From assembly GCA_045578865.1 (NCBI GenBank), contig JAZNLB010000003.1, forward strand, positions 559 to 64,558: DNA of 64,000 nt, written 5' to 3'. Each line of letters opens with the position of its first letter. The stretch's first letter is position 1. Positions 7,291-49,452 of this stretch are shown piece after piece. Below the pieces are notes generated by a model. It did not search any database. It saw only the letters and a program-made list of their open reading frames with translations, and was not told where the DNA came from. The translations under genes and the position numbers were made by a program. The stretch comes from Clostridia bacterium (GTDB lineage Bacteria > Bacillota > Clostridia > UBA1381 > UMGS1253).

Positions 7291-7415
7291 TTTTGTGTTC
7301 CGGTCTTTGGGGGTGAATTGACAATCGGGGCATACTGTGATAACATTATACATAGATATTCAAATAATAAGCGAAGTTTAATTGTGCTTCTGCAATTAAG
7401 AAGGAGGACAACGGT

Positions 7416-7994
7416 ATGAATATTTGTGTATACGGAGCATCGAGTAACAGTATTGATAAAATTTATTTGGAGACTGCCTATACATTGGCGTCCAAAATGG
7501 CAAAACGCGGCCATACGCTTATATACGGCGGTGGCGGGAATGGTGTGATGGGCGCTTGTGCGCGCGGAGCAAACGATAATGGCGGCAAGATTGTTGGCAT
7601 TTCACCAAAATTTTTCACGGTGGATGGTGTGCTCTATGACAACTGTACGGAATTTATTTTCACTGAGACCATGCGAGAGAGAAAAAGGATTTTGGAAGAC
7701 CGTTCCGATGCCTTTGTAATTGCACCGGGTGGTATCGGCACCTTTGATGAGTTTTTTGAAATTTTAACGCTCAAACAACTAGAGCGCCATAATAAACCGA
7801 TTGCAATTTTCAATGTAAAGGGCTATTATGACTTGATGATTGAAATGCTCAACAAGACGGCGGAAGGCAAGTTTATGACGAAAAAAAGCTTAGAACTTTT
7901 CGAAGTGTTTGATGAGGCGGAGGACCTGCTCGACTATATTGAAAATTATGATGAAGCGCCGATAGACATCCGTGAGTTGAAGGATATCGGCTGA
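7416..7994 (+). CDS. LOG-family protein (TIGR00730 type; nucleotide 5'-monophosphate N-glycosidase / cytokinin riboside 5'-monophosphate phosphoribohydrolase-like)
   Basis: 192 aa. Signature motifs GGGGNGVMG and PGGIGTFDEFFE. RBS AAGGAGGA. Confidence 0.85.
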   Translation: MNICVYGASSNSIDKIYLETAYTLASKMAKRGHTLIYGGGGNGVMGACARGANDNGGKIVGISPKFFTVDGVLYDNCTEFIFTETMRERKRILEDRSDAFVIAPGGIGTFDEFFEILTLKQLERHNKPIAIFNVKGYYDLMIEMLNKTAEGKFMTKKSLELFEVFDEAEDLLDYIENYDEAPIDIRELKDIG

Positions 7995-8048
7995 TATTGA
8001 CTTTATACAAAGGATACAAATTGCAAACGAATGCGAGGGGGAAGAAAA

Positions 8049-11000
8049 ATGGATATTAAAAAGCAGGTTTCGAATTTTTACAGAAGTTTCAACTGTAATC
8101 CCGTCATTTTATATGTAGGGCAAAACATATCCGTTTCGGATTTGAAGGCGCATATTGTCGGCTTGCCGTGGAGTTGCGTGCTGACCAGCCGTCGGGAACC
8201 GGAATTTGCCGGTTTATTTGCCACGGAATCTCGAGAAGTAAGAGATTGCGCTAAAAAAGAAGATATTCCGGCAAAACCGATTAATAAGCAGATGCTCAAT
8301 GTGTTGCGTTTGTATGGTATCGAAGGCGAGGAAGATGAAAAAAACGAGCTGTTAGCACAGATGTTTTCGGGCAGGGATTCGGGAATTTCTGCAAAACAGA
8401 CGGTTGCGGCAGAAATGTTTCGTGTTTTAAATTCCCTGCTTGATTGTGCCAGTCAGTTGGTGGTAGTTGGTTACGACCAAACCAACGAAGGCGAGCTTTC
8501 GCTTTATGATTTTTGTTCCACATTACTTGGAGACCGCATCCCGAACGGCAGCGTGCATATCTGGGGTATAGATGCCGAGGATGAAAATAACAAGCCGATT
8601 GAGATGCTGGCTGCCGAAAAGAAATTTGAGCTGATTCCTACATCGCTTGCCGAAGCGCTTATCGAGGCAGGTAAAACGGAAGAAGATGTGATGATGCCGA
8701 GTTATATCGAGACGGGCGATGATGTTTTCTATTGCGACAAAGCGCCGATCGGTATATCTCAAGATGACCTTGTGCAGTTTCGCCATATGGCAACATTGTT
8801 GACGGAAAAAACCGTTAATGCGGTGCGCCCGTACGGCAAGTCAATGTATGAAAGATGGTTTTTTAATTTCTTAAATTCAAGTTCAACGGAAGGTCCGCAG
8901 TGGTATGGCTACCTGTCGAAGTTTTATGTAAAGAGAAGTTTTGAAGATCCGCTTGCGGTGCTGGTTCGCAAGATGCTTGACGGTACAATTCCGCTTGAAA
9001 AACGCGGTCCGGTTATTTTGGAAGGCCCGTCCGGCAGCAGTAAGAGTGTAACGCTTGCGGCGCTCGCATATCGCATATTCAACGAAGGTCTTTGTCCGGT
9101 TATCTTTATCAAAAAGGACTCGTTTTTGTTTTATAATGAAAGCGAGGAAATGAATAAACTTGAAGAGTTGATGCGTCTTATTGATGAAAAAACGCAAAAG
9201 CAGATGCGTATTTTGATTGTATGGGACTGTTCGTCTTACCGTTCAGTAGAGGTCAATGCTTTGCGCCTGACCAGACAGCTGCAAAACAAGGGATTTCGCT
9301 TTGTGTTGGTGTGCAGTGCATACGGCCGCCCGTTTGAGAGCGGACAGACCAATGAGTATTTTAGAACAGAAGAGCCGAGCAAGTTGTTTGCCTGCAAAAA
9401 AGAGGAGGCGCAGATTGTCAAGAGCCGTTCCTGCTATTATATCAATGCTTGCCGTGATATGACCAAGCGTGAAATTGTGGATTTGTGGAATCGTATTTCG
9501 GACTATTCAGGATTAAGTCCGGAGACCATCCGCTATTGGAAAAATCGTTTTGAGCAGCAAAATGAAACGAGTATTTTCCAGTACTTTTATCGACTGATTG
9601 CACTTTTGCGACCGAATCTGGAGCGCGGTCTTTCGCGCGAAGAACAAAAAATATGGCAGTATGTGGAAGCGCAGGTGCGCGAGATTTTGGATGCGCCGGA
9701 GGAGGAAAAGCCACTCACGGCAATGGAGCTTGCTTTGCAGCGTGCAGGGCTGGATATCTCAACATTGCATGCAGAGCAGGGAGAAAATGATGCAGAGACG
9801 GACAATATCGACATGGAGGCATTTTGCCTTTGCATTGCGATGTTCAGCCGTTTTAAACTGGAGGTACCATACAACATTGCTTTTCAAAGTTTGACGGGGA
9901 TGAGCAATGCAAATATGGTTTATTCTGCCACGCACAGAAAACTTTTTGAAATAATTACAAAAATTCCGCTCGTTTACTATGGAGAAAGCGAGGCGGACGG
10001 CGATTATGCTTTCCGTTTCAGAAATGCGTTTGAAGCACAATTATTCTTGGAGCGTAAAGACCCGACGGGCGAAAAGCAGTTGAAGCAAATTTTGCAGATT
10101 ATCCGTCTTTACAATGAAGAATATGAGAGAAACCGTTTTGAAGACGAGCGCTTTAAAAAGAGTTTGATTGACTTTTTGCGCCTTATTGGTCCGAACTCGG
10201 ATTATTATAAAGGCAAAGAGCATGAATATGATGTTGACCATTTGTATATCTTGGGCAATCTGGATAAGTTGGTTGCAGAAGTGGAAGCGCTTGATGTGCC
10301 AAATAAGGATGGCGGATTTACTCAGTTGTCGGTTACTTTTATGCGTGAGTTTTTCGGTAAACTTTGGGATGCCAGAAGCACGGAGCGCGGCGTAAAGAAG
10401 TGGGAAGCATGTCCGGACCACTTTAATAAAGAAACCTACGAACTGCGTATCGAACAGTTAAGTAAGGCGCGTCGCTTGGCAGATGAGTGTGTGGAAACGC
10501 TGAAAAATAAGATTGATGACTTGACAATGCATTGGGAAAACAAGCAACGAATGGCGGAAGAAAAGAATTCGTTGGCAGTGGAAACTGCGCTGATTAATGC
10601 GACCATTGAGCGATTGGAAAAAGAATATAGCGAATGTTGCAAGGAAAACGGACAGACACCGGAAGAAAAGTATTGTGTATTGCATACAGAGTATCAGGAA
10701 ACTTTCCGTCAACTTGAAAAGGTGATTTATTACAACCCGCTCAACGGTTATGCCTATAATGCGCTTTTTAGTGCTTTTGAGCAGATGTATAATAAGGAAA
10801 GTGTTTCGCAAGAAAAGAAGCTGCAACATTTAAGTGAGATTATGCCGCTTGTGGACTTGGCGACCAATCCGGATATTGTTAACCGTGGCGAGAGAGAAGA
10901 TGAACTCAGCAAGCATGTGCAAAGAATTTATGATTTCAGTAAAGGCTATGCGATTACAATTGATCGAATTTTAGCGCGTGGCGAGCAAGAAATGGCCGAT

Positions 11001-11783
11001 GAAGCGATGGAGGTATACTTTAAACTTTATGATGCGCTTATGGAGTCGAATAATCCGGCGGCAATCTTGTTTGTTTGTCAAAAGGAACTGGCAGCGGCAC
11101 AGATTTCTTCTGAAACAGTGGATGAACTCAGTACAGCACAGTTGGAGGTTTGTCAAAAGGTACGCAAATTTATGAGCAGTTCCGACAACTACGATTGTGT
11201 TTCCACAAAAGCCAATGCGATGGCGCTTTTGATACGCACCACATGGATGTGTGCAAACAAGCGTCCATTAACGGGTGGTCGTGACCGACAGTTGACATAT
11301 CTGGACGATAGGCAGTGGCGCGAAGTTCAAAGACTTTGCCGCACCTACGAGGAAACGGCAAGCCATATCGGCTATCAGCCGGTTATTATGTTGATTTATG
11401 CGTTGTCCGAAATTCAGGTCAATGCAGATTATCGGGCAGCAAGTGATATTTTACGAAAACTCAGTGAAGGCCGATTCTTTAATTTGTCCAGAATGAGAAC
11501 GCCGTATATGATTTGTAAGAAGGATGGCAGCGGGCAGTTGGAAACCTTTACCGGTCGTGTAAATTACATTCAGGACACCAGAAAAGGCAGTTTCAAGATT
11601 GCAGGAATTCCTGATCGCTTGATTGGCGGAGAGTATGGCGTGCACTTTGTATGTCAGAATCTCGGCATTAAGAGTATGCCGCCGCTGAATAAAAGATATG
11701 ATGACCTTGAACTCGGCCTGGGATATATGGGCTTGACTGCTTATACCGAACAGGGCAGGAAGGAACGAGGTGAGTCGGTATGA
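8049..11783 (+). CDS. Large (1244 aa) uncharacterised P-loop NTPase with a degenerate SIR2-like N-terminal module and a long helical C-terminal region (STAND/NLR-like architecture)
   Basis: Track ORF 8031-11783. I prefer the ATG at 8049 after GAGGGGGAAG. Walker A GPSGSSKS (nt 9024-9047). Walker B-like RILIVWDCS (nt 9207-9233). N-terminal motif order VILYVGQNIS / WSCVLTSRRE / VLRLYG / LVVVGYDQTNE parallels SIR2_2, but the catalytic positions are substituted. The remaining ~800 aa are helix-rich. The family call is from pattern memory only. Confidence 0.85.
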   Translation: MDIKKQVSNFYRSFNCNPVILYVGQNISVSDLKAHIVGLPWSCVLTSRREPEFAGLFATESREVRDCAKKEDIPAKPINKQMLNVLRLYGIEGEEDEKNELLAQMFSGRDSGISAKQTVAAEMFRVLNSLLDCASQLVVVGYDQTNEGELSLYDFCSTLLGDRIPNGSVHIWGIDAEDENNKPIEMLAAEKKFELIPTSLAEALIEAGKTEEDVMMPSYIETGDDVFYCDKAPIGISQDDLVQFRHMATLLTEKTVNAVRPYGKSMYERWFFNFLNSSSTEGPQWYGYLSKFYVKRSFEDPLAVLVRKMLDGTIPLEKRGPVILEGPSGSSKSVTLAALAYRIFNEGLCPVIFIKKDSFLFYNESEEMNKLEELMRLIDEKTQKQMRILIVWDCSSYRSVEVNALRLTRQLQNKGFRFVLVCSAYGRPFESGQTNEYFRTEEPSKLFACKKEEAQIVKSRSCYYINACRDMTKREIVDLWNRISDYSGLSPETIRYWKNRFEQQNETSIFQYFYRLIALLRPNLERGLSREEQKIWQYVEAQVREILDAPEEEKPLTAMELALQRAGLDISTLHAEQGENDAETDNIDMEAFCLCIAMFSRFKLEVPYNIAFQSLTGMSNANMVYSATHRKLFEIITKIPLVYYGESEADGDYAFRFRNAFEAQLFLERKDPTGEKQLKQILQIIRLYNEEYERNRFEDERFKKSLIDFLRLIGPNSDYYKGKEHEYDVDHLYILGNLDKLVAEVEALDVPNKDGGFTQLSVTFMREFFGKLWDARSTERGVKKWEACPDHFNKETYELRIEQLSKARRLADECVETLKNKIDDLTMHWENKQRMAEEKNSLAVETALINATIERLEKEYSECCKENGQTPEEKYCVLHTEYQETFRQLEKVIYYNPLNGYAYNALFSAFEQMYNKESVSQEKKLQHLSEIMPLVDLATNPDIVNRGEREDELSKHVQRIYDFSKGYAITIDRILARGEQEMADEAMEVYFKLYDALMESNNPAAILFVCQKELAAAQISSETVDELSTAQLEVCQKVRKFMSSSDNYDCVSTKANAMALLIRTTWMCANKRPLTGGRDRQLTYLDDRQWREVQRLCRTYEETASHIGYQPVIMLIYALSEIQVNADYRAASDILRKLSEGRFFNLSRMRTPYMICKKDGSGQLETFTGRVNYIQDTRKGSFKIAGIPDRLIGGEYGVHFVCQNLGIKSMPPLNKRYDDLELGLGYMGLTAYTEQGRKERGESV

Positions 11784-12769
11784 GAAATGGTTTGATGGGC
11801 AATCATGTAGAACTGCTCAATTCTGCAGTTCAGACGCAGATTGCCAAGCATCTGTTTCTGGTGTGCAACTATCAGCCGGTGCCGATGGCAGCGCCTCATG
11901 CAAGTACAAGGTTTTTAATTCGAATTCAGGAGCTATATAAAGTAGTCGCGGACTGTGGCGATTTGGTACGCAAGATGAAAAAAATTTTGCCGAAGCATGT
12001 ACTTGAGAAGCATAAAAATCTTGAGGCTATGCTGGAAGAAGAGCTTGAACCAAAGGTTAAACTGGTTGAACTGCTGCGTTTTGTAGTTGATCATAATAAT
12101 GCTGAGGAAAACGGGTATGAGCAACAACAGCAGTTGCAGCAATACGAGATTTGGGTTAAGAAACAGATTTCAAAACCTCAACCGGAAACGGAAGAAGATT
12201 ACGAGGTTTTAGACAGTGCATTGGAAGTGCTTTCCGATGAACTTTGTGCAGTTATTCATCGCGTTATTGTCTATATCGGAGAAATGCAGTATGCCGATAA
12301 AAGCAGTATAATTCGGAAGTGGGAATGGCAAATTCTCGACTGGTATGCGCGGCCGTTCGGCAATTTATATTATGGCTTTCTGGCAATGACATACTTTTCC
12401 AAAGCGCGCAGCAGGGATGGTAAATTTGAGTTCGTAGACGATGCACAAAGAACCGTATGTGTTGAGGAGTGGGTTTCTCGTATGCTTCGTCATGAACTGC
12501 AAACGAAAATCGATGGTACAAAAGCGGCGATTGAAGTTTGCGGACCAATACCGGTTTTGCTTGAACAACTGGAGACGGAGCAGGCAGAACTGGAAGGGTT
12601 GGAAGCTGAAATTCAAAAGGAAAAGGGCGACAGGAGATATTTTTTAAATCGCTTGCCGGAGTGGCTTCGTGAAACGATGAGAGAATGTCACTGCTCGATG
12701 TTGCCGCAGGAATTGATTGATGAGGATATTAAGCGCCGATTTGAGTCTGTGCCGACCGCTGATTTTTAG
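11780..12769 (+). CDS. Hypothetical 329-aa protein, translationally coupled partner of the large NTPase
   Basis: Its ATG overlaps the upstream stop as ATGA (11780-11783). Helical/coiled-coil-looking, with a Q-rich patch (EQQQQLQQ). No recognisable motif. Followed by a strong terminator. Confidence 0.75.
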   Translation: MRNGLMGNHVELLNSAVQTQIAKHLFLVCNYQPVPMAAPHASTRFLIRIQELYKVVADCGDLVRKMKKILPKHVLEKHKNLEAMLEEELEPKVKLVELLRFVVDHNNAEENGYEQQQQLQQYEIWVKKQISKPQPETEEDYEVLDSALEVLSDELCAVIHRVIVYIGEMQYADKSSIIRKWEWQILDWYARPFGNLYYGFLAMTYFSKARSRDGKFEFVDDAQRTVCVEEWVSRMLRHELQTKIDGTKAAIEVCGPIPVLLEQLETEQAELEGLEAEIQKEKGDRRYFLNRLPEWLRETMRECHCSMLPQELIDEDIKRRFESVPTADF

Positions 12770-12776
12770 TGATAAA

Positions 12777-12817
12777 GGGGGTGTAAAACTTGGTTTTTAC
12801 ATTCCCTTTTATTTTTT
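12777..12817 (+). terminator. Intrinsic terminator closing the 8049-12769 operon
   Basis: Stem gggggtgtaaaa / ttttacattccc (12 bp including 2 G-U) with a 6-nt loop, followed by TTTTATTTTTT. Confidence 0.8.
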
Positions 12818-13048
12818 CTGCGTTGCAACGAAAATGCTTTTTGATAGTTTTGCTTAAGCAGGTGCGGGTATAAAACCGAGTTTTCGGCGGGAGTGTTCGT
12901 CAATCGTGCATCCGAAGCAAGTGTTAAAGCGCTTGCGGAGCACGCGATTGGAAAGGGTAACGACCGAAGATGGTGAAATTTTTAATTCATCTTGTAACAC
13001 ATCATTGACAAACCTACAAAAAACGCGAAAGAATGTGCACCAAGTGTA

Positions 13049-13077
13049 TTGACGAGAGTGCGAAAAAATTATATAAT
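13049..13077 (+). promoter_or_regulatory. Sigma-A type promoter of cysE-cysS
   Basis: TTGACG (13049-13054), 17 nt, TATAAT (13072-13077). The leader to the cysE ATG is only ~40 nt. Confidence 0.6.
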
Positions 13078-13117
13078 ATGGTGTGGTGTATAAGGAGAAA
13101 TTGTAAAGGAGACGGGT

Positions 13118-13762
13118 ATGTTTAAAAATATTCGTTACGATATAAAATCTATATTGGAACGCGACCCTGCGGCAAGAAACGGCTTTGAAGTTTTTTTGCT
13201 CTATCCGGGATTTCATGCCCTTTTATATCATCGTGTGGCACATTGGTTTTATAAGCACAACATGAAATTTATGGCACGGTGGGTATCGCAGACAGGTAAA
13301 TTCTGGACGGGAGTTGAAATTCACCCGGGGGCAACGATCGGGCGAGGCCTTTTAATCGACCACGGCGCAGGTGTTGTTATCGGCGAAACTGCTGAAATCG
13401 GCGACAACTGTACTATCTATCAGGGAGTAACGCTCGGCGGAACGGGTAAAGATGTCGGCAAGCGACATCCGACACTCGGCAACAATGTCATGGTCGGTGC
13501 CGGCGCAAAGGTGCTCGGGCCGTTCAAGGTTGGCGACAATGCAAAGATTGCCGCAAATGCGGTTGTTTTGTCCGAGGTAGAGGAAAATTCCACTTGCGTG
13601 GGCGTGCCGGGCAGAATGGTGAAGCGTGCAGGGCAGAGAGTCAGTGCAGACCTTGACCAGATTCACATTCCGGACCCCGTCAGCATGGAACTTTGTAAAG
13701 TGCTTATGCGCGTAGAAAAACTAGAAAAGAAACTTGCTGAGTCAGAGGGAGGCAAACAATGA
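13118..13762 (+). CDS. cysE: Serine O-acetyltransferase
   Basis: 214 aa. N-terminal ERDPAARN block plus left-handed beta-helix hexapeptide repeats (GATIG.., GAGVVIGETAEIG.., GVTLGG..). Confidence 0.9.
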   Translation: MFKNIRYDIKSILERDPAARNGFEVFLLYPGFHALLYHRVAHWFYKHNMKFMARWVSQTGKFWTGVEIHPGATIGRGLLIDHGAGVVIGETAEIGDNCTIYQGVTLGGTGKDVGKRHPTLGNNVMVGAGAKVLGPFKVGDNAKIAANAVVLSEVEENSTCVGVPGRMVKRAGQRVSADLDQIHIPDPVSMELCKVLMRVEKLEKKLAESEGGKQ

Positions 13763-17609: not shown

Positions 17610-18893
17610 TTAAGGCATGTTATAATACACGCTGTCTACATCAAAGAAGGTTTTGTTGATGAAATCCTTTTTAGTACGCATATTGTAGCGGTCGAGGTTC
17701 AAACGCTCTGAGAAGAGTACCCCCTCGTCCGTTTCATAGGTACGCATCGCCGGGCTGACCGGACAAAAGATGTTGTAGCCCATATTTTTCATGTATTGCA
17801 AGCGGTCATCGCCTTCCGGGAGAAAATAGCCGAAAGGACTGATGTAGATATCGGTGTTGTGGATCAAGTCTGCGATGCGCTCTTTAAAGCGGTTTGTATC
17901 ATAGGTTAGGTCTTCCATTTCCACACCGCCGTCGCGAAAATAGTCGTTGTGCGTGTAGCTGTGGCATGCAAGAAGCCAACCGGTATCGAGTAGTTTTTGC
18001 GTGATTTTGAGCGCCTCAGCCTTTGCCTTTTCCTGTTCTTCACCTTCAAGCTTTACGGTGCGGTAGCCAAAAACGCCCTCGTACCCCGTCACGGCAACAA
18101 TGCCTTTTGCTCCCCGCCAAGAAAAGTCGGGGTGTTCGCGCACAAATTCATCGAGAATCGGCATTACATCGCCGTCGTAAGTAACGATAACTTCGCCGCT
18201 CGGCGTGGTTACTTCGCACGCAAGATTTCCTTCGTCATTGATTACAAGTCTGTCTGCAAAGCCGTCGCCTTTCATATATTCGTAGTAGTTTACATCGTCA
18301 ATGGAAATGATGAGGGGTTTTTTCCCCGGCGGCAGTAAAATTTCACCGTCTGCCTTGACTTGGTCGAGCGGAAAGAGTATAAAGTCGCGCTCGTAGAGTT
18401 GCGGCAGCATCGCCTTAAACTCGGAAACGGTGGTCATCCACATATCGTAGCCTTCGTGTTTGTAGTCGCCGTCAAAGGCGAGTTCGGGGTAGATAATCAA
18501 ACTGTGGAAAAAGACATGATAATACTGTCCGTCATAGGGAACAAGAGCCGCCTTTGCCGTTTCGATTTCTTGTTTTAATGTAAGCACTGCCTCTTTTTGT
18601 GCATACTTGGATTCGGAAAGCAGCGTCAGCGCCTCATCGTAAAAATAACTTTTGGAGAGTGCTCTTGCCTCCTCGAGCGTTGTATCGAGTTTGGAGGCAG
18701 ACGACTGACCGCTGTTTTGCATGCAACTTTGTATACCAAGCACGAGACCCGCAATCAGGACAAGCGCGCCGAGTAACAGTATAATTAAGCGCCAGGGCAA
18801 GTGTGTTTTTCGCTTTTTGGGCGGTCTTCCCGGTTGCACTGCGCCGATGGATTCGAGCAAATCTTCTCTGGATATTTCGAGGGAATTGTTCAT
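17610..18893 (-). CDS. Membrane-anchored polysaccharide deacetylase-family protein
   Basis: 427 aa. N-terminal TM helix (WRLIILLLGALVLIAGLVLGI). NodB-like motifs IISIDDV and CHSYTHNDY. Confidence 0.6.
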   Translation of the reverse strand: MNNSLEISREDLLESIGAVQPGRPPKKRKTHLPWRLIILLLGALVLIAGLVLGIQSCMQNSGQSSASKLDTTLEEARALSKSYFYDEALTLLSESKYAQKEAVLTLKQEIETAKAALVPYDGQYYHVFFHSLIIYPELAFDGDYKHEGYDMWMTTVSEFKAMLPQLYERDFILFPLDQVKADGEILLPPGKKPLIISIDDVNYYEYMKGDGFADRLVINDEGNLACEVTTPSGEVIVTYDGDVMPILDEFVREHPDFSWRGAKGIVAVTGYEGVFGYRTVKLEGEEQEKAKAEALKITQKLLDTGWLLACHSYTHNDYFRDGGVEMEDLTYDTNRFKERIADLIHNTDIYISPFGYFLPEGDDRLQYMKNMGYNIFCPVSPAMRTYETDEGVLFSERLNLDRYNMRTKKDFINKTFFDVDSVYYNMP

Positions 18894-31280: not shown

Positions 31281-31292
31281 AAATATAGAGAA

Positions 31293-31425
31293 ATCTTCAG
31301 GGTTGGGTGCAATTCCCTACCGGCGGTAAAAATTGGTTTTTTAAAAATCAGTTCAAGCCCGCGAGTCGAAAGACTGACTCGGTGTGATTCCGAGGCCGAC
31401 GGTAAAGTCCGGATGAAAGAAGATA
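31293..31425 (+). promoter_or_regulatory. FMN riboswitch (RFN element)
   Basis: Conserved RFN blocks: tcttcagggttgggtgcaattccctaccggcggta ... agcccgcgag ... tcggtgtgattccgaggccgacggtaaagtccggatgaaagaaga. P1 pairs tcttc with gaaga. Followed by a T-rich tract and a weak hairpin, ccctg..caggg plus T-run (31447-31471). Confidence 0.9.
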
Positions 31426-31513
31426 TGTTTTTTCTTTTTTTGTGTGCCCTGTGATTTTTCAGGGTTTTTTTAAATTTTTCGCATCAGCGAAAGCAACGGA
31501 GGGAGAAAAAACA

Positions 31514-49288: not shown

Positions 49289-49373
49289 TGGTGGAAGAGG
49301 ATGGATTCGAACCATCGAAGCTGAAAGCAACAGATTTACAGTCTGCCCCCTTTGGCCACTCGGGAACTCTTCC
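49289..49373 (-). tRNA. tRNA-Tyr (anticodon GTA), CCA encoded
   Basis: Reverse complement is GGAAGAGTTCCCGAGTGGCCAAAGGGGGCAGACTGTAAATCTGTTGCTTTCAGCTTCGATGGTTCGAATCCATCCTCTTCCACCA. It has a 7-bp acceptor stem, anticodon loop CTGTAAA, a long variable arm and a GGTTCGAATCC T-arm. Confidence 0.9.
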
Positions 49374-49376
49374 GTA

Positions 49377-49452
49377 TGGAGCTGGTGATGGGACTCGAAC
49401 CCGCAACCTGCTGATTACAAATCAGCTGCTCTGCCAATTGAGCTACACCAGC
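49377..49452 (-). tRNA. tRNA-Thr (anticodon TGT), CCA encoded
   Basis: Reverse complement is GCTGGTGTAGCTCAATTGGCAGAGCAGCTGATTTGTAATCAGCAGGTTGCGGGTTCGAGTCCCATCACCAGCTCCA. It has anticodon stem-loop GCTGA-TTTGTAA-TCAGC and a GGGTTCGAGTCCC T-arm. Confidence 0.9.

Follow-up and report, generated by a model that had tools for sequence, protein, structure and literature searches.

The 64,000-nt stretch of Clostridia bacterium DNA analysed here (hereafter the window) contains two overlapping genes, A and B, which a first-pass annotation read as a STAND/NLR-type unit. The question raised by this locus is whether the pair is a conflict system and, if so, which of its two proteins acts as the effector. 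Taken as a whole, the two-gene unit is borne out by its reading frames, motifs, signals and homologues. The interpretation placed upon it survives in part: the architecture, the STAND-like NTPase and the coupling of the genes stand, but the N-terminal effector domain and the repeat arm proposed for A are not supported.

The gene pair and its expression signals

The features of the locus, all on the forward strand, are as follows.

8036..8045, +, GAGGGGGAAG, Shine-Dalgarno-like sequence 6-7 nt before the gene A ATG at 8049 (read from the sequence)
8049..11783, +, gene A, 1244 aa (ORF and translation)
8049..8693, +, A aa 1-215, SIR2-like Rossmann domain of variant type, canonical Asn/His dyad absent (AF2, Foldseek, alignment)
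8694..8894, +, A aa 216-282, linker or pre-NTPase segment, LLTE..I..IRP.GR.....WF.NFL (conserved columns)
8895..9338, +, A aa 283-430, P-loop NTPase core (nSTAND_NTPase5 match, column counts)
9339..11468, +, A aa 431-1140, presumed helical sensor or arm (no family match)
11469..11780, +, A aa 1141-1244, Gly/beta module, RMRTP..C.., G.V, GFI.V, GVRF, LELGIGY.G (conserved columns)
11780..11783, +, ATGA stop/start overlap of A and B, translational coupling (sequence)
11780..12769, +, gene B, 329 aa, stand-alone helical partner of an uncatalogued family
11780..12475, +, B aa 1-232, conserved helical domain (alignment of 128 members, AF2)
12077..12097, +, putative active site of B, R100-x4-H105-N106, with N14, Y53 and D58 (column conservation)
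12476..12688, +, B aa 233-303, coiled-coil-like spacer, variable in length and poorly conserved (alignment, model)
12689..12766, +, B aa 304-329, conserved C-terminal tail, [ST][LM]LPQ[DE]..Q..I...F..V (alignment)
12774..12817, +, intrinsic terminator closing the A-B unit (15-bp stem at 12774-12809 and TATTTTTT T-tract)

The reading frame of A is open over 8031-11783, and 8049 is its likely start because GAGGGGGAAG lies upstream and homologues begin at the equivalent methionine with the same MD.KK, which confirms the 1244-aa ORF of the first pass. Both ORFs have full-length homologues (17-73% identity) and so represent real genes. Homologues of A form ~64 full-length clusters (26-73% identity) among 5.8 billion sequences, every one unnamed, and the equally unnamed B family comprises 223 representatives in 1.84 billion proteins, nearly all of 300-370 aa. 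That neither protein could be assigned to a named family agrees with Pfam, NCBIfam, PADLOC and the PDB, none of which places A or matches B; B also matches no known fold.

The ATGA overlap described earlier is real, and a GAGGTG inside A lies 8 nt upstream of the start of B. Elsewhere, B is found directly 3' of A at all loci examined, the junction overlaps in 17 of 18 loci (by 4 nt at 12 loci, by 8 nt at 2 and by 1 nt at 3), and an SD-like GGAGG/GAGGTG internal to A recurs at other junctions. The distance matrices of A and B are strongly correlated (r = 0.92, Mantel 0/5000), and A and B are each other's only recurring neighbours, with nothing else co-travelling. The obligatory coupling originally suggested for the pair is therefore upheld by the presence of B at every locus, the mostly 4-nt overlap and co-evolution. 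The strong terminator reported after B likewise withstands scrutiny (dG -17 kcal/mol, z -3.36 against shuffles). Directly upstream of A lies a LOG/SLOG protein gene (7416-7994) that the first pass had not listed; since the 54-nt gap between them contains neither a terminator nor a promoter-like site, transcription of A-B may begin upstream of this gene.

Domain architecture of protein A

Protein A consists of a SIR2-fold domain, a P-loop NTPase, a long presumed-helical region and a small beta module, and it shares the order of SIR2 fold, STAND-type P-loop and C-terminal sensor with Avs5 (AVAST type 5, e.g. EfAvs5). A potential explanation is that A alone is a complete, Avs5-like SIR2-STAND protein whose divergent SIR2 domain still degrades NAD+ or processes another nucleotide through non-canonical residues, with B as an accessory that keeps A off (an inhibitor or antitoxin), a chaperone or a specificity factor. 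At the level of fold, the SIR2-like module previously placed at aa ~15-170 is well supported: the AF2 model of the N-domain has a pLDDT of 85.8 (core >90), its nearest folds in the PDB by Foldseek are the active NADases KomC (3.9e-6), ThsA (9e-6) and DSR2 (9.5e-5), with SAMD9 at 2.9e-4, and all matches at E <= 0.001 are defence SIR2 domains or SAMD9. Moreover, conservation extends to G24 in the Gly-rich loop and to T46 and G141 in the nucleotide-binding Rossmann core, and B evolves fast (mean identity 0.26), as is often true of regulators and antitoxins.

However, the catalytic residues expected of an NADase are missing. With SIR2 catalytic positions mapped by motif order and model strand positions rather than by superposition, position 89 (the His of KLHG) is F, Y, C, L, M or Q and is His in 0/56 members, while position 48 (the Asn of TTNYD) is R in 39, S in 8, C in 3 and N in only 4, so that Asn is missing in 52/56. 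Polar residues conserved in at least 90% of members are limited in aa 1-215 to S42 and T46, and few parts of A are less conserved or evolve faster than this domain (mean pairwise identity 0.285). The Pfam SIR2 profiles that had been proposed as a check match none of 39 members, and no PADLOC Avs/AVAST model matches any member. Avs5 is also a single gene of ~850 aa, mostly from Gram-negatives, whose NADase pocket is active (T140, N141, Y142 and further residues), whereas A, from Clostridia, is 1244 aa long, is invariably accompanied by a second gene and is missing the catalytic Asn and His. Furthermore, a pure regulator would hardly be expected to hold just an R-x4-H motif invariant in 128 sequences, as B does, and we consider it unlikely that A acts alone.

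The absence of the canonical His and Asn, together with low conservation, suggests instead that the N-domain probably serves as a scaffold and not as an NADase, and the effector role first given to it finds no support in these columns. It resembles the Sir2-like scaffold of SAMD9/9L, which is non-catalytic, more than the Avs5 NADase; similarity between A and SAMD9 was not detected at the sequence level. In the literature, the Sir2-like domain of SAMD9L is described as having a scaffolding function, the effector being separate, and the Avs5 sensor is reported to cluster with SAMD9.

Following a linker with conserved L250, L251, T252, P261, G263, F274 and L275 (modelled as two strands plus helices at moderate pLDDT), the NTPase core shows the highest conservation within A (0.48 identity). 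Its Walker A (GPSGSSKS, 9024-9047) and Walker B (RILIVWDCS, 9207-9233) lie where the first pass put them, the former preceded by GPQWYGY and R296-x-x-E299, and the Walker residues K332 and D393 are invariant among 56 homologues. A single sequence family, Pfam nSTAND_NTPase5 (PF25199), matches this core recurrently; it covers aa 283-422 of the window's A at E 7e-4 and 19.8 bits, below the gathering cut-off of 34, and gives sub-threshold matches in 33/39 members (best E 1.3e-6). Few relatives have this family as their precomputed annotation, and the papers searched gave no description of partners for this clade. The P-loop thus appears weakly nSTAND5-like on sequence grounds, in line with the STAND-like NTPase recognised earlier. 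ATPases of this kind are used by both bacteria and animals as infection sensors. As the Walker B of A is without a second acidic residue, A may also be hydrolysis-deficient by analogy with the nucleotide-binding module (NOD) of EfAvs5, which binds ATP and is deficient in its hydrolysis.

The region that follows (aa 431-1140) gives no match in Pfam, PADLOC or the PDB and is patchily conserved (0.27-0.39); no TPR or HEAT profile matches it to support the repeat arm described earlier. The C-terminal Gly/beta module noted at the same time is present and conserved across homologues (R1148, P1152, C1156, G1162, G1169, G1180, F1200, E1221 and G1223). It is a possible OB/cold-shock-like barrel; in hhalign it aligns in register with the cold-shock OB proteins CspA/CspB, but not significantly (probability 1.4%, P 0.036).

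Protein B and its invariant residues

No motif had been recognised in B, and it is true that no family matches it: its model finds nothing among solved and viral structures in Foldseek, and PDB searches with its spacer return only coiled-coil noise. Overlooked, however, was an invariant R-x4-H. R100 and H105 are the sole invariant columns among 128 members, with N14, Y53, D58 and N106 conserved in at least 90% (D58 in 126/128). In the AF2 model, which was built from 4 sequences and is of moderate confidence only (pLDDT 67.5), R100 and H105 close helix 79-105, ahead of a loop to helix 113-130, while D58 ends helix 41-58 and long helices occupy 228-281. The stretch from W231 to P309 spans 43-129 residues across members. 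Beyond it, the tail is conserved (P309 in 125/128, L308 and F321 in 104 each) and disordered in the model (pLDDT <50), and could possibly be a docking peptide.

The placement of the motif at a helix end, the acidic residue in the preceding helix (helix 2), the insert between helices and the all-alpha composition of B fit the published description of the HEPN superfamily (PMC3710099). HEPN domains often serve as effectors, both in STAND systems and elsewhere in defence, and STAND systems with HEPN effectors are on record. On the other hand, HEPN profiles in Pfam give a significant match in 0/128 members, no HEPN structure matches and hhalign against DUF4145 yields no signal; the residue after R100 is T, S or A in B and typically N, D or H in HEPN, and B has ~200 further residues (a helical extension, the coiled coil and the conserved tail). 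Given the invariant R-x4-H, B is nonetheless a better putative effector candidate than the N-domain of A.

Alternatively, B might be a sensor, adaptor or guardee that binds the trigger or is modified by it and signals to A, whose oligomer would then be toxic, for example because its SIR2-like domain binds a nucleotide or ligand or because its unannotated 700 aa hold an unrecognised activity. B has no recognisable enzyme fold, it evolves faster than A and its spacer varies in length, as if exposed to phage antagonists, and there are literature precedents for host-factor-assisted STAND sensing. We nevertheless find this account distinctly unlikely: the only invariant residues of B are a catalytic-type R/H pair rather than a binding surface, A already holds ~800 aa of sensor-like sequence, and beyond the P-loop no nameable candidate active site was found among the conserved columns of A.

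Genomic context and a model for the pair

Another possibility is that the pair has no part in conflict and comprises a large regulatory ATPase and its partner, serving Clostridia in housekeeping or signalling. The flanks in the window, which are housekeeping or regulatory rather than defensive, count in its favour and against a defence reading: the neighbours listed in the first pass are indeed XRE-type HTH, GGDEF and ArsR/SdpR-like plus DUF1648 genes and an unknown helical ORF, and LOG, cysE/cysS, htpG and metA flank the pair in the window and at one other locus (L007). Yet in several other genomes the flanks are of a different kind, and the defence-island setting suggested as a check is seen there but not in the window. 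RADAR RdrA/RdrB and TIR genes, complete type I R-M systems, a DUF4062 protein gene, and a Tn916-type integrase and serine recombinase have been found beside A-B, and RADAR, type I R-M, TIR genes and integrases adjoin it repeatedly. The pair is sparse and patchy, as the small size of both families indicates, being carried by gut Clostridia and one Coriobacteriaceae (an actinobacterium); its position differs even between copies that are 73% identical; copies decay, with B frameshifted at one locus (L010) and A split at another (L022); and its architecture is common to immune STANDs. A housekeeping role is consequently very improbable.

Least probable of all, to the point of being scarcely credible, is that B is a Fido (Fic/Doc)-type rather than a HEPN effector, since its Fic-like H105-N-x-S-[ED]-x-N111-G112 resembles the Fic core HxFx[DE]GNG in column counts (E/D109 71/128, N111 94/128, G112 96/128) and in its position at a helix end before a loop and helix, but the two arginines that follow GNG in Fic are missing (at position 113 most members have a gap), Fic has nothing equivalent to the invariant R100, Pfam Fic matches 0/128 members and Fic/Doc structures are absent from the Foldseek matches.

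The reading we favour, to which we would give about an even chance, is that A-B is a self-contained two-gene STAND/NLR-like conflict module with A as sensor-switch and B as effector in trans. SAMD9/SAMD9L and the bacterial 'Avs9'/'Avs6' proteins resemble A in having a variant, apparently non-catalytic Sir2-like domain before a STAND P-loop, followed by a helical or TPR region (presumed helical in A) and a small C-terminal beta domain, and resemble A-B in that the effector is a separate module. They differ in that SAMD9 and Avs9 carry an N-terminally fused AlbA_2 tRNase effector, whereas A is devoid of AlbA_2 and the candidate effector, B, is encoded apart from it and is of another kind. Multi-gene systems such as Avs2-trypsin-MBL and the two-gene nSTAND2 systems similarly couple a STAND NTPase genetically to a partner or effector with a gene of its own, but their NTPase clades, partners and effector chemistries are different and none has a B-like protein.

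We infer the following course of events. The helical region and C-terminal beta module of A would recognise an infection cue, and its P-loop, with the invariant Walker Lys and Asp and no second acidic residue, would serve mainly as an NTP-binding switch driving oligomerisation, while the SIR2-fold domain would offer an assembly or scaffold surface rather than NADase activity, as proposed for SAMD9L. Translational coupling would set a fixed A:B stoichiometry, and the conserved tail of B, beyond the variable coiled-coil spacer, could dock B onto A. Activation of A would then release or assemble B, whose R-x4-H pair appears to be placed as in the metal-independent HEPN RNases, and active B would cut RNA and so stop the growth of the infected cell. 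A-B probably provides gut Clostridia with an antiphage system not described before.

Gene anatomy and surroundings of the A-B pair

The first-pass annotation proposed a two-gene unit, in which a SIR2-like/STAND candidate protein (A) is coupled to a partner protein (B). We find that this unit exists and that most of its description holds, but two points need correcting: the effector is probably not the SIR2-like domain of A, and it is B that has the best candidate active site. The reading frames concerned are as follows.

Reading frames of the A-B unit and of the gene preceding it, in window coordinates
7416-7994, forward strand, LOG/SLOG-family gene (Lysine_decarbox, LDcluster4), ending 54 nt before A
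8031-11783, forward strand, open frame of A, 1250 codons
8049-11783, forward strand, gene A as read here, 1244 aa
11780-12769, forward strand, frame of B, 329 codons

The 1244-aa product is the likely reading of A, because a Shine-Dalgarno-like site (GAGGGGGAAG) lies 6-7 nt upstream of the ATG at 8049 and homologues possess an equivalent Met start. The A stop codon and the B start codon share an ATGA, as previously noted, and the terminator said to close the unit is recovered as a 15-bp hairpin (12774-12809) followed by a T-tract (dG -17 kcal/mol, z -3.4). The neighbours named in the first-pass annotation are also borne out (an XRE-type HTH, GGDEF, ArsR/SdpR-like plus DUF1648, and an unknown helical ORF), while the LOG/SLOG gene had been omitted. 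The 54-nt gap between this gene and A contains neither a terminator nor a promoter-like site, and consequently the A-B pair may be co-transcribed with the LOG gene here; the nearest promoter-like site before A (7318-7346, TTGACA-17-TAACAT with TG) lies upstream of the LOG gene. We considered the LOG/SLOG gene as a third component and dropped it, since it is missing beside A-B in all other loci.

Downstream of the pair lie cysE, cysS, and the genes for mini-RNase III and transketolase. A 120-aa antisense ORF without Pfam match (12854-13216, reverse strand) overlaps the cysE start region, and two strong promoter-like sites are located just 5' of cysE (13005-13034 and 13049-13077, the latter matching at 11/12). 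A T-box in the cysE leader was rejected, given that Rfam returned no match across 12817-13117. Elsewhere, the first 6000 nt of the window (galT, galM, galK, XRE, GGDEF) have a G+C content of 34-37%, against 44-50% in most of the remaining window, and this segment may differ from the remainder in origin. Further features include a 427-aa ORF without Pfam match lying amid housekeeping genes on the opposite strand (17610-18893, reverse), an FMN riboswitch (31289-31428, forward, 118 bits) and two adjacent tRNA genes (49292-49452, reverse). Around 50-56 kb the GC skew is flat and the AT skew goes negative, and the coding strand apparently switches.

Distribution and genomic context

Homologues of A form 64 clusters in 5.8 billion proteins, none of which bears a functional name. 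With the exception of two shorter entries (838 and 1056 aa) they are 1208-1302 aa long, and most can be aligned end to end, with identities of 26-73%. Loci were collected in long metagenomic contigs as well as in 185,579 species genomes, and in these the family is found in gut Clostridia (Pseudoflavonifractor capillosus ATCC 29799, Oscillospiraceae, Lachnospiraceae, Lachnoanaerobaculum and Ruminococcus), with a single copy outside this class, in a Coriobacteriaceae MAG. No relatives of A were detected by tblastn in phage and plasmid collections. A word-seeded search for B homologues recovered only 2-3 proteins and an exhaustive profile search was needed, yielding 223 representatives among 1.84 billion proteins. 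Nearly all of these are stand-alone proteins of 300-370 aa, and none is a fusion.

The coupling of the two genes is a constant feature, with a B-homologous ORF (290-376 aa) found 3' of A in every locus read. The stop/start overlap measures 4 nt at 12 of 18 junctions, 8 nt at two and 1 nt at three, with a 2-nt gap at one, and GGAGG or GAGGTG lies within the 3' end of A at these junctions. When all neighbouring ORFs were clustered, only A and B emerged as recurrent. Moreover, the two genes are conserved together and co-evolve, their pairwise identities being correlated at r = 0.92 across 17 loci (Mantel 0/5000), and B is the faster-evolving partner (mean identity 0.26, versus 0.37 for A, over the same loci). 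Two of the loci from other genomes hold decayed copies: in L010 (13738-14750) B is frameshifted into two frames, and in L022 (10001-14267) A is split and lacks approximately 140 aa, and B can hardly be recognised. These could represent pseudogenisation or MAG assembly errors.

The flanks of A-B vary between genomes. Ordinary housekeeping genes flank the window copy and a 73%-identical copy. In two loci a RADAR-like three-gene cluster lies directly upstream of the pair (L001, 3172-9781; L005, 2969-9565), encoding a TPR-like protein (418-438 aa), a KAP/RdrA-like ATPase (811-829 aa) and an RdrB-like adenosine deaminase (940 aa). The A proteins of these two lineages are only 46% identical to each other, and one of the lineages also has TIR genes near A-B. 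The recurrence of this arrangement may mean that the linkage is a lasting one or that the island is composite; we dropped the idea that RADAR is an obligate partner, as it is adjacent in only two lineages. In Lachnoanaerobaculum the genes immediately before A-B form a complete type I R-M system. About 9 kb downstream of the pair (L024 and L025, 19873-21014) a bpMoxR/AAA_5 ATPase precedes a DUF5682 protein, in one island with the R-M system and a shufflon-type integrase. Two other loci (L003, 7029-9218; L004, 1120-3297) have, upstream of A-B, a protein of 725-729 aa that contains DUF4062 and weakly matches a GajA-like ATPase; DUF4062 is common in defence-type proteins. A Tn916-type integrase and a serine recombinase occur among the flanks elsewhere. 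An ADP-ribosylglycohydrolase, a curious neighbour for a SIR2-fold protein, sits between priA and A in only two related Lachnospiraceae loci (L015, 8270-9829; L019, an ORF of 519-523 aa directly upstream of A). As a whole, the patchy spread, the changing genomic position, the decay of some copies and the frequent presence of defence or mobile genes nearby would fit a conflict module that moves horizontally.

Domain architecture of protein A

The model, the alignment and the profile matches uphold the tripartite STAND layout first proposed for A, with an N-terminal module, a central NTPase and a long C-terminal region. An AlphaFold2 model of aa 1-292, built from 56 sequences (mean pLDDT 85.8, core > 90), retrieves in Foldseek at E <= 0.001 exclusively defence-type SIR2 domains and human SAMD9: KomC/HAM-SIR2 (E 3.9e-6), ThsA (E 9e-6), DSR2 (E 9.5e-5) and SAMD9 (E 2.9e-4; chains 9zjw and 9zjv, 3e-4 to 6e-4). 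SIR2-HerA matches more weakly (E 5.5e-3), and for KomC, ThsA, DSR2 and SIR2-HerA the Foldseek probability is 1.00 and TM 0.42-0.48. The suggested SIR2_2-like identity of this domain therefore holds at the level of the fold but not at that of the profile, as none of 39 members matches Pfam SIR2 or SIR2_2 at E <= 0.1.

The His and the Asn on which ThsA, DSR2 and sirtuins depend for activity are not kept in this domain. With the sites placed via motif order and model strands, without superposition, position 89, corresponding to the His of KLHG, is F in 33 of 56 members, Y in 13, C in 4, L in 3, M in 2 and Q in 1, never His (motif [RQK]L[FYCLMQ]G), and position 48, corresponding to the Asn of TTNYD and preceded by T-[ST], is R in 39, S in 8, N in 4 and C in 3. 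Within aa 1-215 only L21, G24, W41, S42, T46, G141 and L200 are kept at >= 90%, and the SIR2-like domain ranks with the least conserved regions of A (0.285), the NTPase core being the most conserved (0.48). A conserved His at the KLHG site matters for the activity of sirtuins and ThsA (PMC12700824), and it is because A lacks this residue that we read its N-terminal domain, on alignment and model, as a non-catalytic SIR2 fold. Its earlier designation as the effector is thus probably incorrect, given a catalytic His in 0/56 members, the Asn in 4/56 and low conservation.

Both Walker motifs had been placed at their exact coordinates. In Walker A (GxxxxGK[ST]) G326 and K332 are invariant and S333 is present in 53/56 members; in Walker B (hhhhD) D393 is invariant after hhhhW, and position 394 is S in 31, C in 18, G in 6 and I in 1, with no second acidic residue. 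The segment KRSYED, which precedes Walker A by approximately 30 aa, holds an invariant R296 and, in 52/56 members, E299, giving R296-x-x-E299; STAND proteins reportedly carry an Arg/Glu motif, hhGRExE, upstream of the P-loop. In STAND proteins a sensor-1 Arg also comes after strand 4, and helical and winged-helix domains follow the core; in A, no Arg follows the strand VLVCSSY. The nearest NTPase family is Pfam nSTAND_NTPase5, which matches the window protein below threshold (aa 283-422, E 7e-4, 19.8 bits, cut-off 34) and 33 of 39 members (best E 1.3e-6), matches to nSTAND3, AAA_16 and NACHT being sporadic. The features of the P-loop region (the Walker motifs, R-x-x-E, the missing second acidic residue and the missing Arg) suggest a switch that binds NTP and hydrolyses it weakly or not at all, as has been reported for EfAvs5 and SAMD9L.

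Other searches with A were less informative. Pfam, NCBIfam and PADLOC gave only sub-threshold P-loop matches for the window protein, the PADLOC 2.0.0 AVAST/Avs models matched none of 39 members (a weak P-loop match to mad8 being the only one), and phmmer and the family profile retrieved only P-loop noise (RFC, FlhF, FtsY) from PDB sequences. The 700 aa following the NTPase core had no match, and Pfam gave no TPR, CSD or S1 match in A. A conserved Gly/beta module makes up the last ~100 aa; hhalign aligns it in register with the cold-shock OB proteins CspA/CspB at a probability of 1.4%, which is not significant.

Protein B, possible mechanism and relationship to known systems

Protein B carries the best candidate active site of the pair. 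Across 128 members, 17-36% identical to the query, R100 and H105 are the only invariant columns (128/128), while N14, L25, Y31, Y53, D58, N106, Y189 and P309 are kept at >= 90%. The AlphaFold2 model, built from four sequences (pLDDT 67.5; aa 79-190 at 87-92), is all-helical: R100 and H105 lie at the C-terminal end of helix 79-105, whose last residue is H105, with a loop (106-112) and helix 113-130 coming next, D58 (126/128) ends helix 41-58, and short helices (61-77) lie between helices 41-58 and 79-105. Beyond this core, a variable spacer of 43-129 aa has coiled-coil character, and a conserved C-terminal tail ([ST][LM]LPQ[DE]..Q..I...F..V), disordered in the model, could serve as a docking peptide.

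The R-x4-H of B conforms to the Rx4-6H motif of HEPN domains (PMC3710099), and in the model (pLDDT 67.5) the helix placement of R100/H105 and of D58 fits the HEPN description. However, the residue after R100 (T in 51, S in 35, A in 28, G in 4, H in 3, F in 2, N in 2) does not follow the N/D/H of HEPN, and no HEPN profile or structure was matched by B (128 members in Pfam; PDB and BFVD). Nor did B match anything in Pfam, NCBIfam, PADLOC or the PDB (the window protein, with 17 and 128 members scanned individually). Foldseek of the model against PDB and BFVD returned nothing at E < 0.3, profile and phmmer searches of PDB sequences retrieved coiled-coil noise only, and hhalign of the N-terminal profile with the DUF4145 HEPN of neighbouring HsdR genes, a template of two near-identical sequences, gave no signal.

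In the reading that we favour, about as likely as not, A would be an Avs/NLR-like sensor-switch and B its effector in trans: the C-terminal helical and beta region of A would sense a cue, NTP binding would drive assembly of A, and the dead SIR2 fold would provide the assembly platform, with B supplied in a fixed ratio through translational coupling and held to A by its tail. On activation B would be released or assembled and would cut RNA via R100/H105, arresting the infected cell. For SAMD9L, dimerisation runs through the Sir2-like domain, which also contacts the OB domain, and the effector is a separate AlbA domain. Of this scheme, the data show the gene anatomy, its conservation, the co-evolution and the missing SIR2 catalytic residues, and we infer sensing, assembly, contact between A and B, RNase activity and defence. 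A bolder version, less likely than not, is a split SAMD9-like receptor: a STAND sensor that keeps a dead SIR2 fold purely for assembly would license a separate R-x4-H RNase, either a very divergent HEPN or a new fold, tethered by its conserved tail.

Several alternative hypotheses may be considered. Rather unlikely in our estimation is that A is a self-sufficient, non-canonical NADase and B its regulator; the fold of the A N-domain is shared with ThsA, and its catalytic His is lost in all members aligned. Somewhat more doubtful is B as sensor or adaptor: it evolves faster than A, and R100 and H105 are invariant. A non-defence role for the pair appears improbable, with housekeeping flanks at two copies and frequent defence or mobile neighbours at others. 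The least credible alternative, a Fido-like B with H105-N-x-S-[ED]-x-N-G as a Fic-like motif, suffers from the absence of the Fic arginines and of any profile or fold support.

A invites comparison with two known systems. It shares its SIR2-STAND layout with Avs5, yet Avs5 is a single gene with an active SIR2 NADase, whereas A has no match to Avs/AVAST HMMs, lacks the catalytic dyad and has an obligate partner. It also resembles the SAMD9/‘Avs9’ core of Sir2-like, STAND, TPR/helical and OB parts, having a variant Sir2-like domain immediately before the P-loop; however, A has no AlbA_2, its helical region is presumed and its OB a candidate only, and the A family profile, run against the PDB at E <= 10, shows no sequence homology to SAMD9. 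STAND systems with separate or HEPN effectors provide precedents, though a B-like protein occurs in none of them. The clade of A may be listed, unnamed, in a 2026 catalogue of at least 90 families and 589 STAND clades. On present sequence and model evidence, A-B is probably an NLR-like antiphage-type system whose partner protein belongs to an uncatalogued family.

Prokaryotic immunity relies to a large extent on STAND/NLR-like receptors, and to our knowledge those characterised are almost all Proteobacterial, with the effector in cis. A-B comes from strict gut anaerobes, whose defence systems are poorly explored, and its sensor and putative effector are separate polypeptides, so that the activation step, A acting on B, is genetically and biochemically separable. 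The dead SIR2 fold of A parallels the enigmatic Sir2-like domain of human SAMD9/9L, mutations in which cause MIRAGE and ataxia-pancytopenia syndromes, and a tractable bacterial analogue could reveal the role of this domain. Should B prove to be an RNase, it would represent a new effector family overlooked by Pfam and the PADLOC 2.0 HMMs, and the split SAMD9-like reading, if true, would mean a new Avs-type family as well as a new family of effectors, largely of gut Clostridia.
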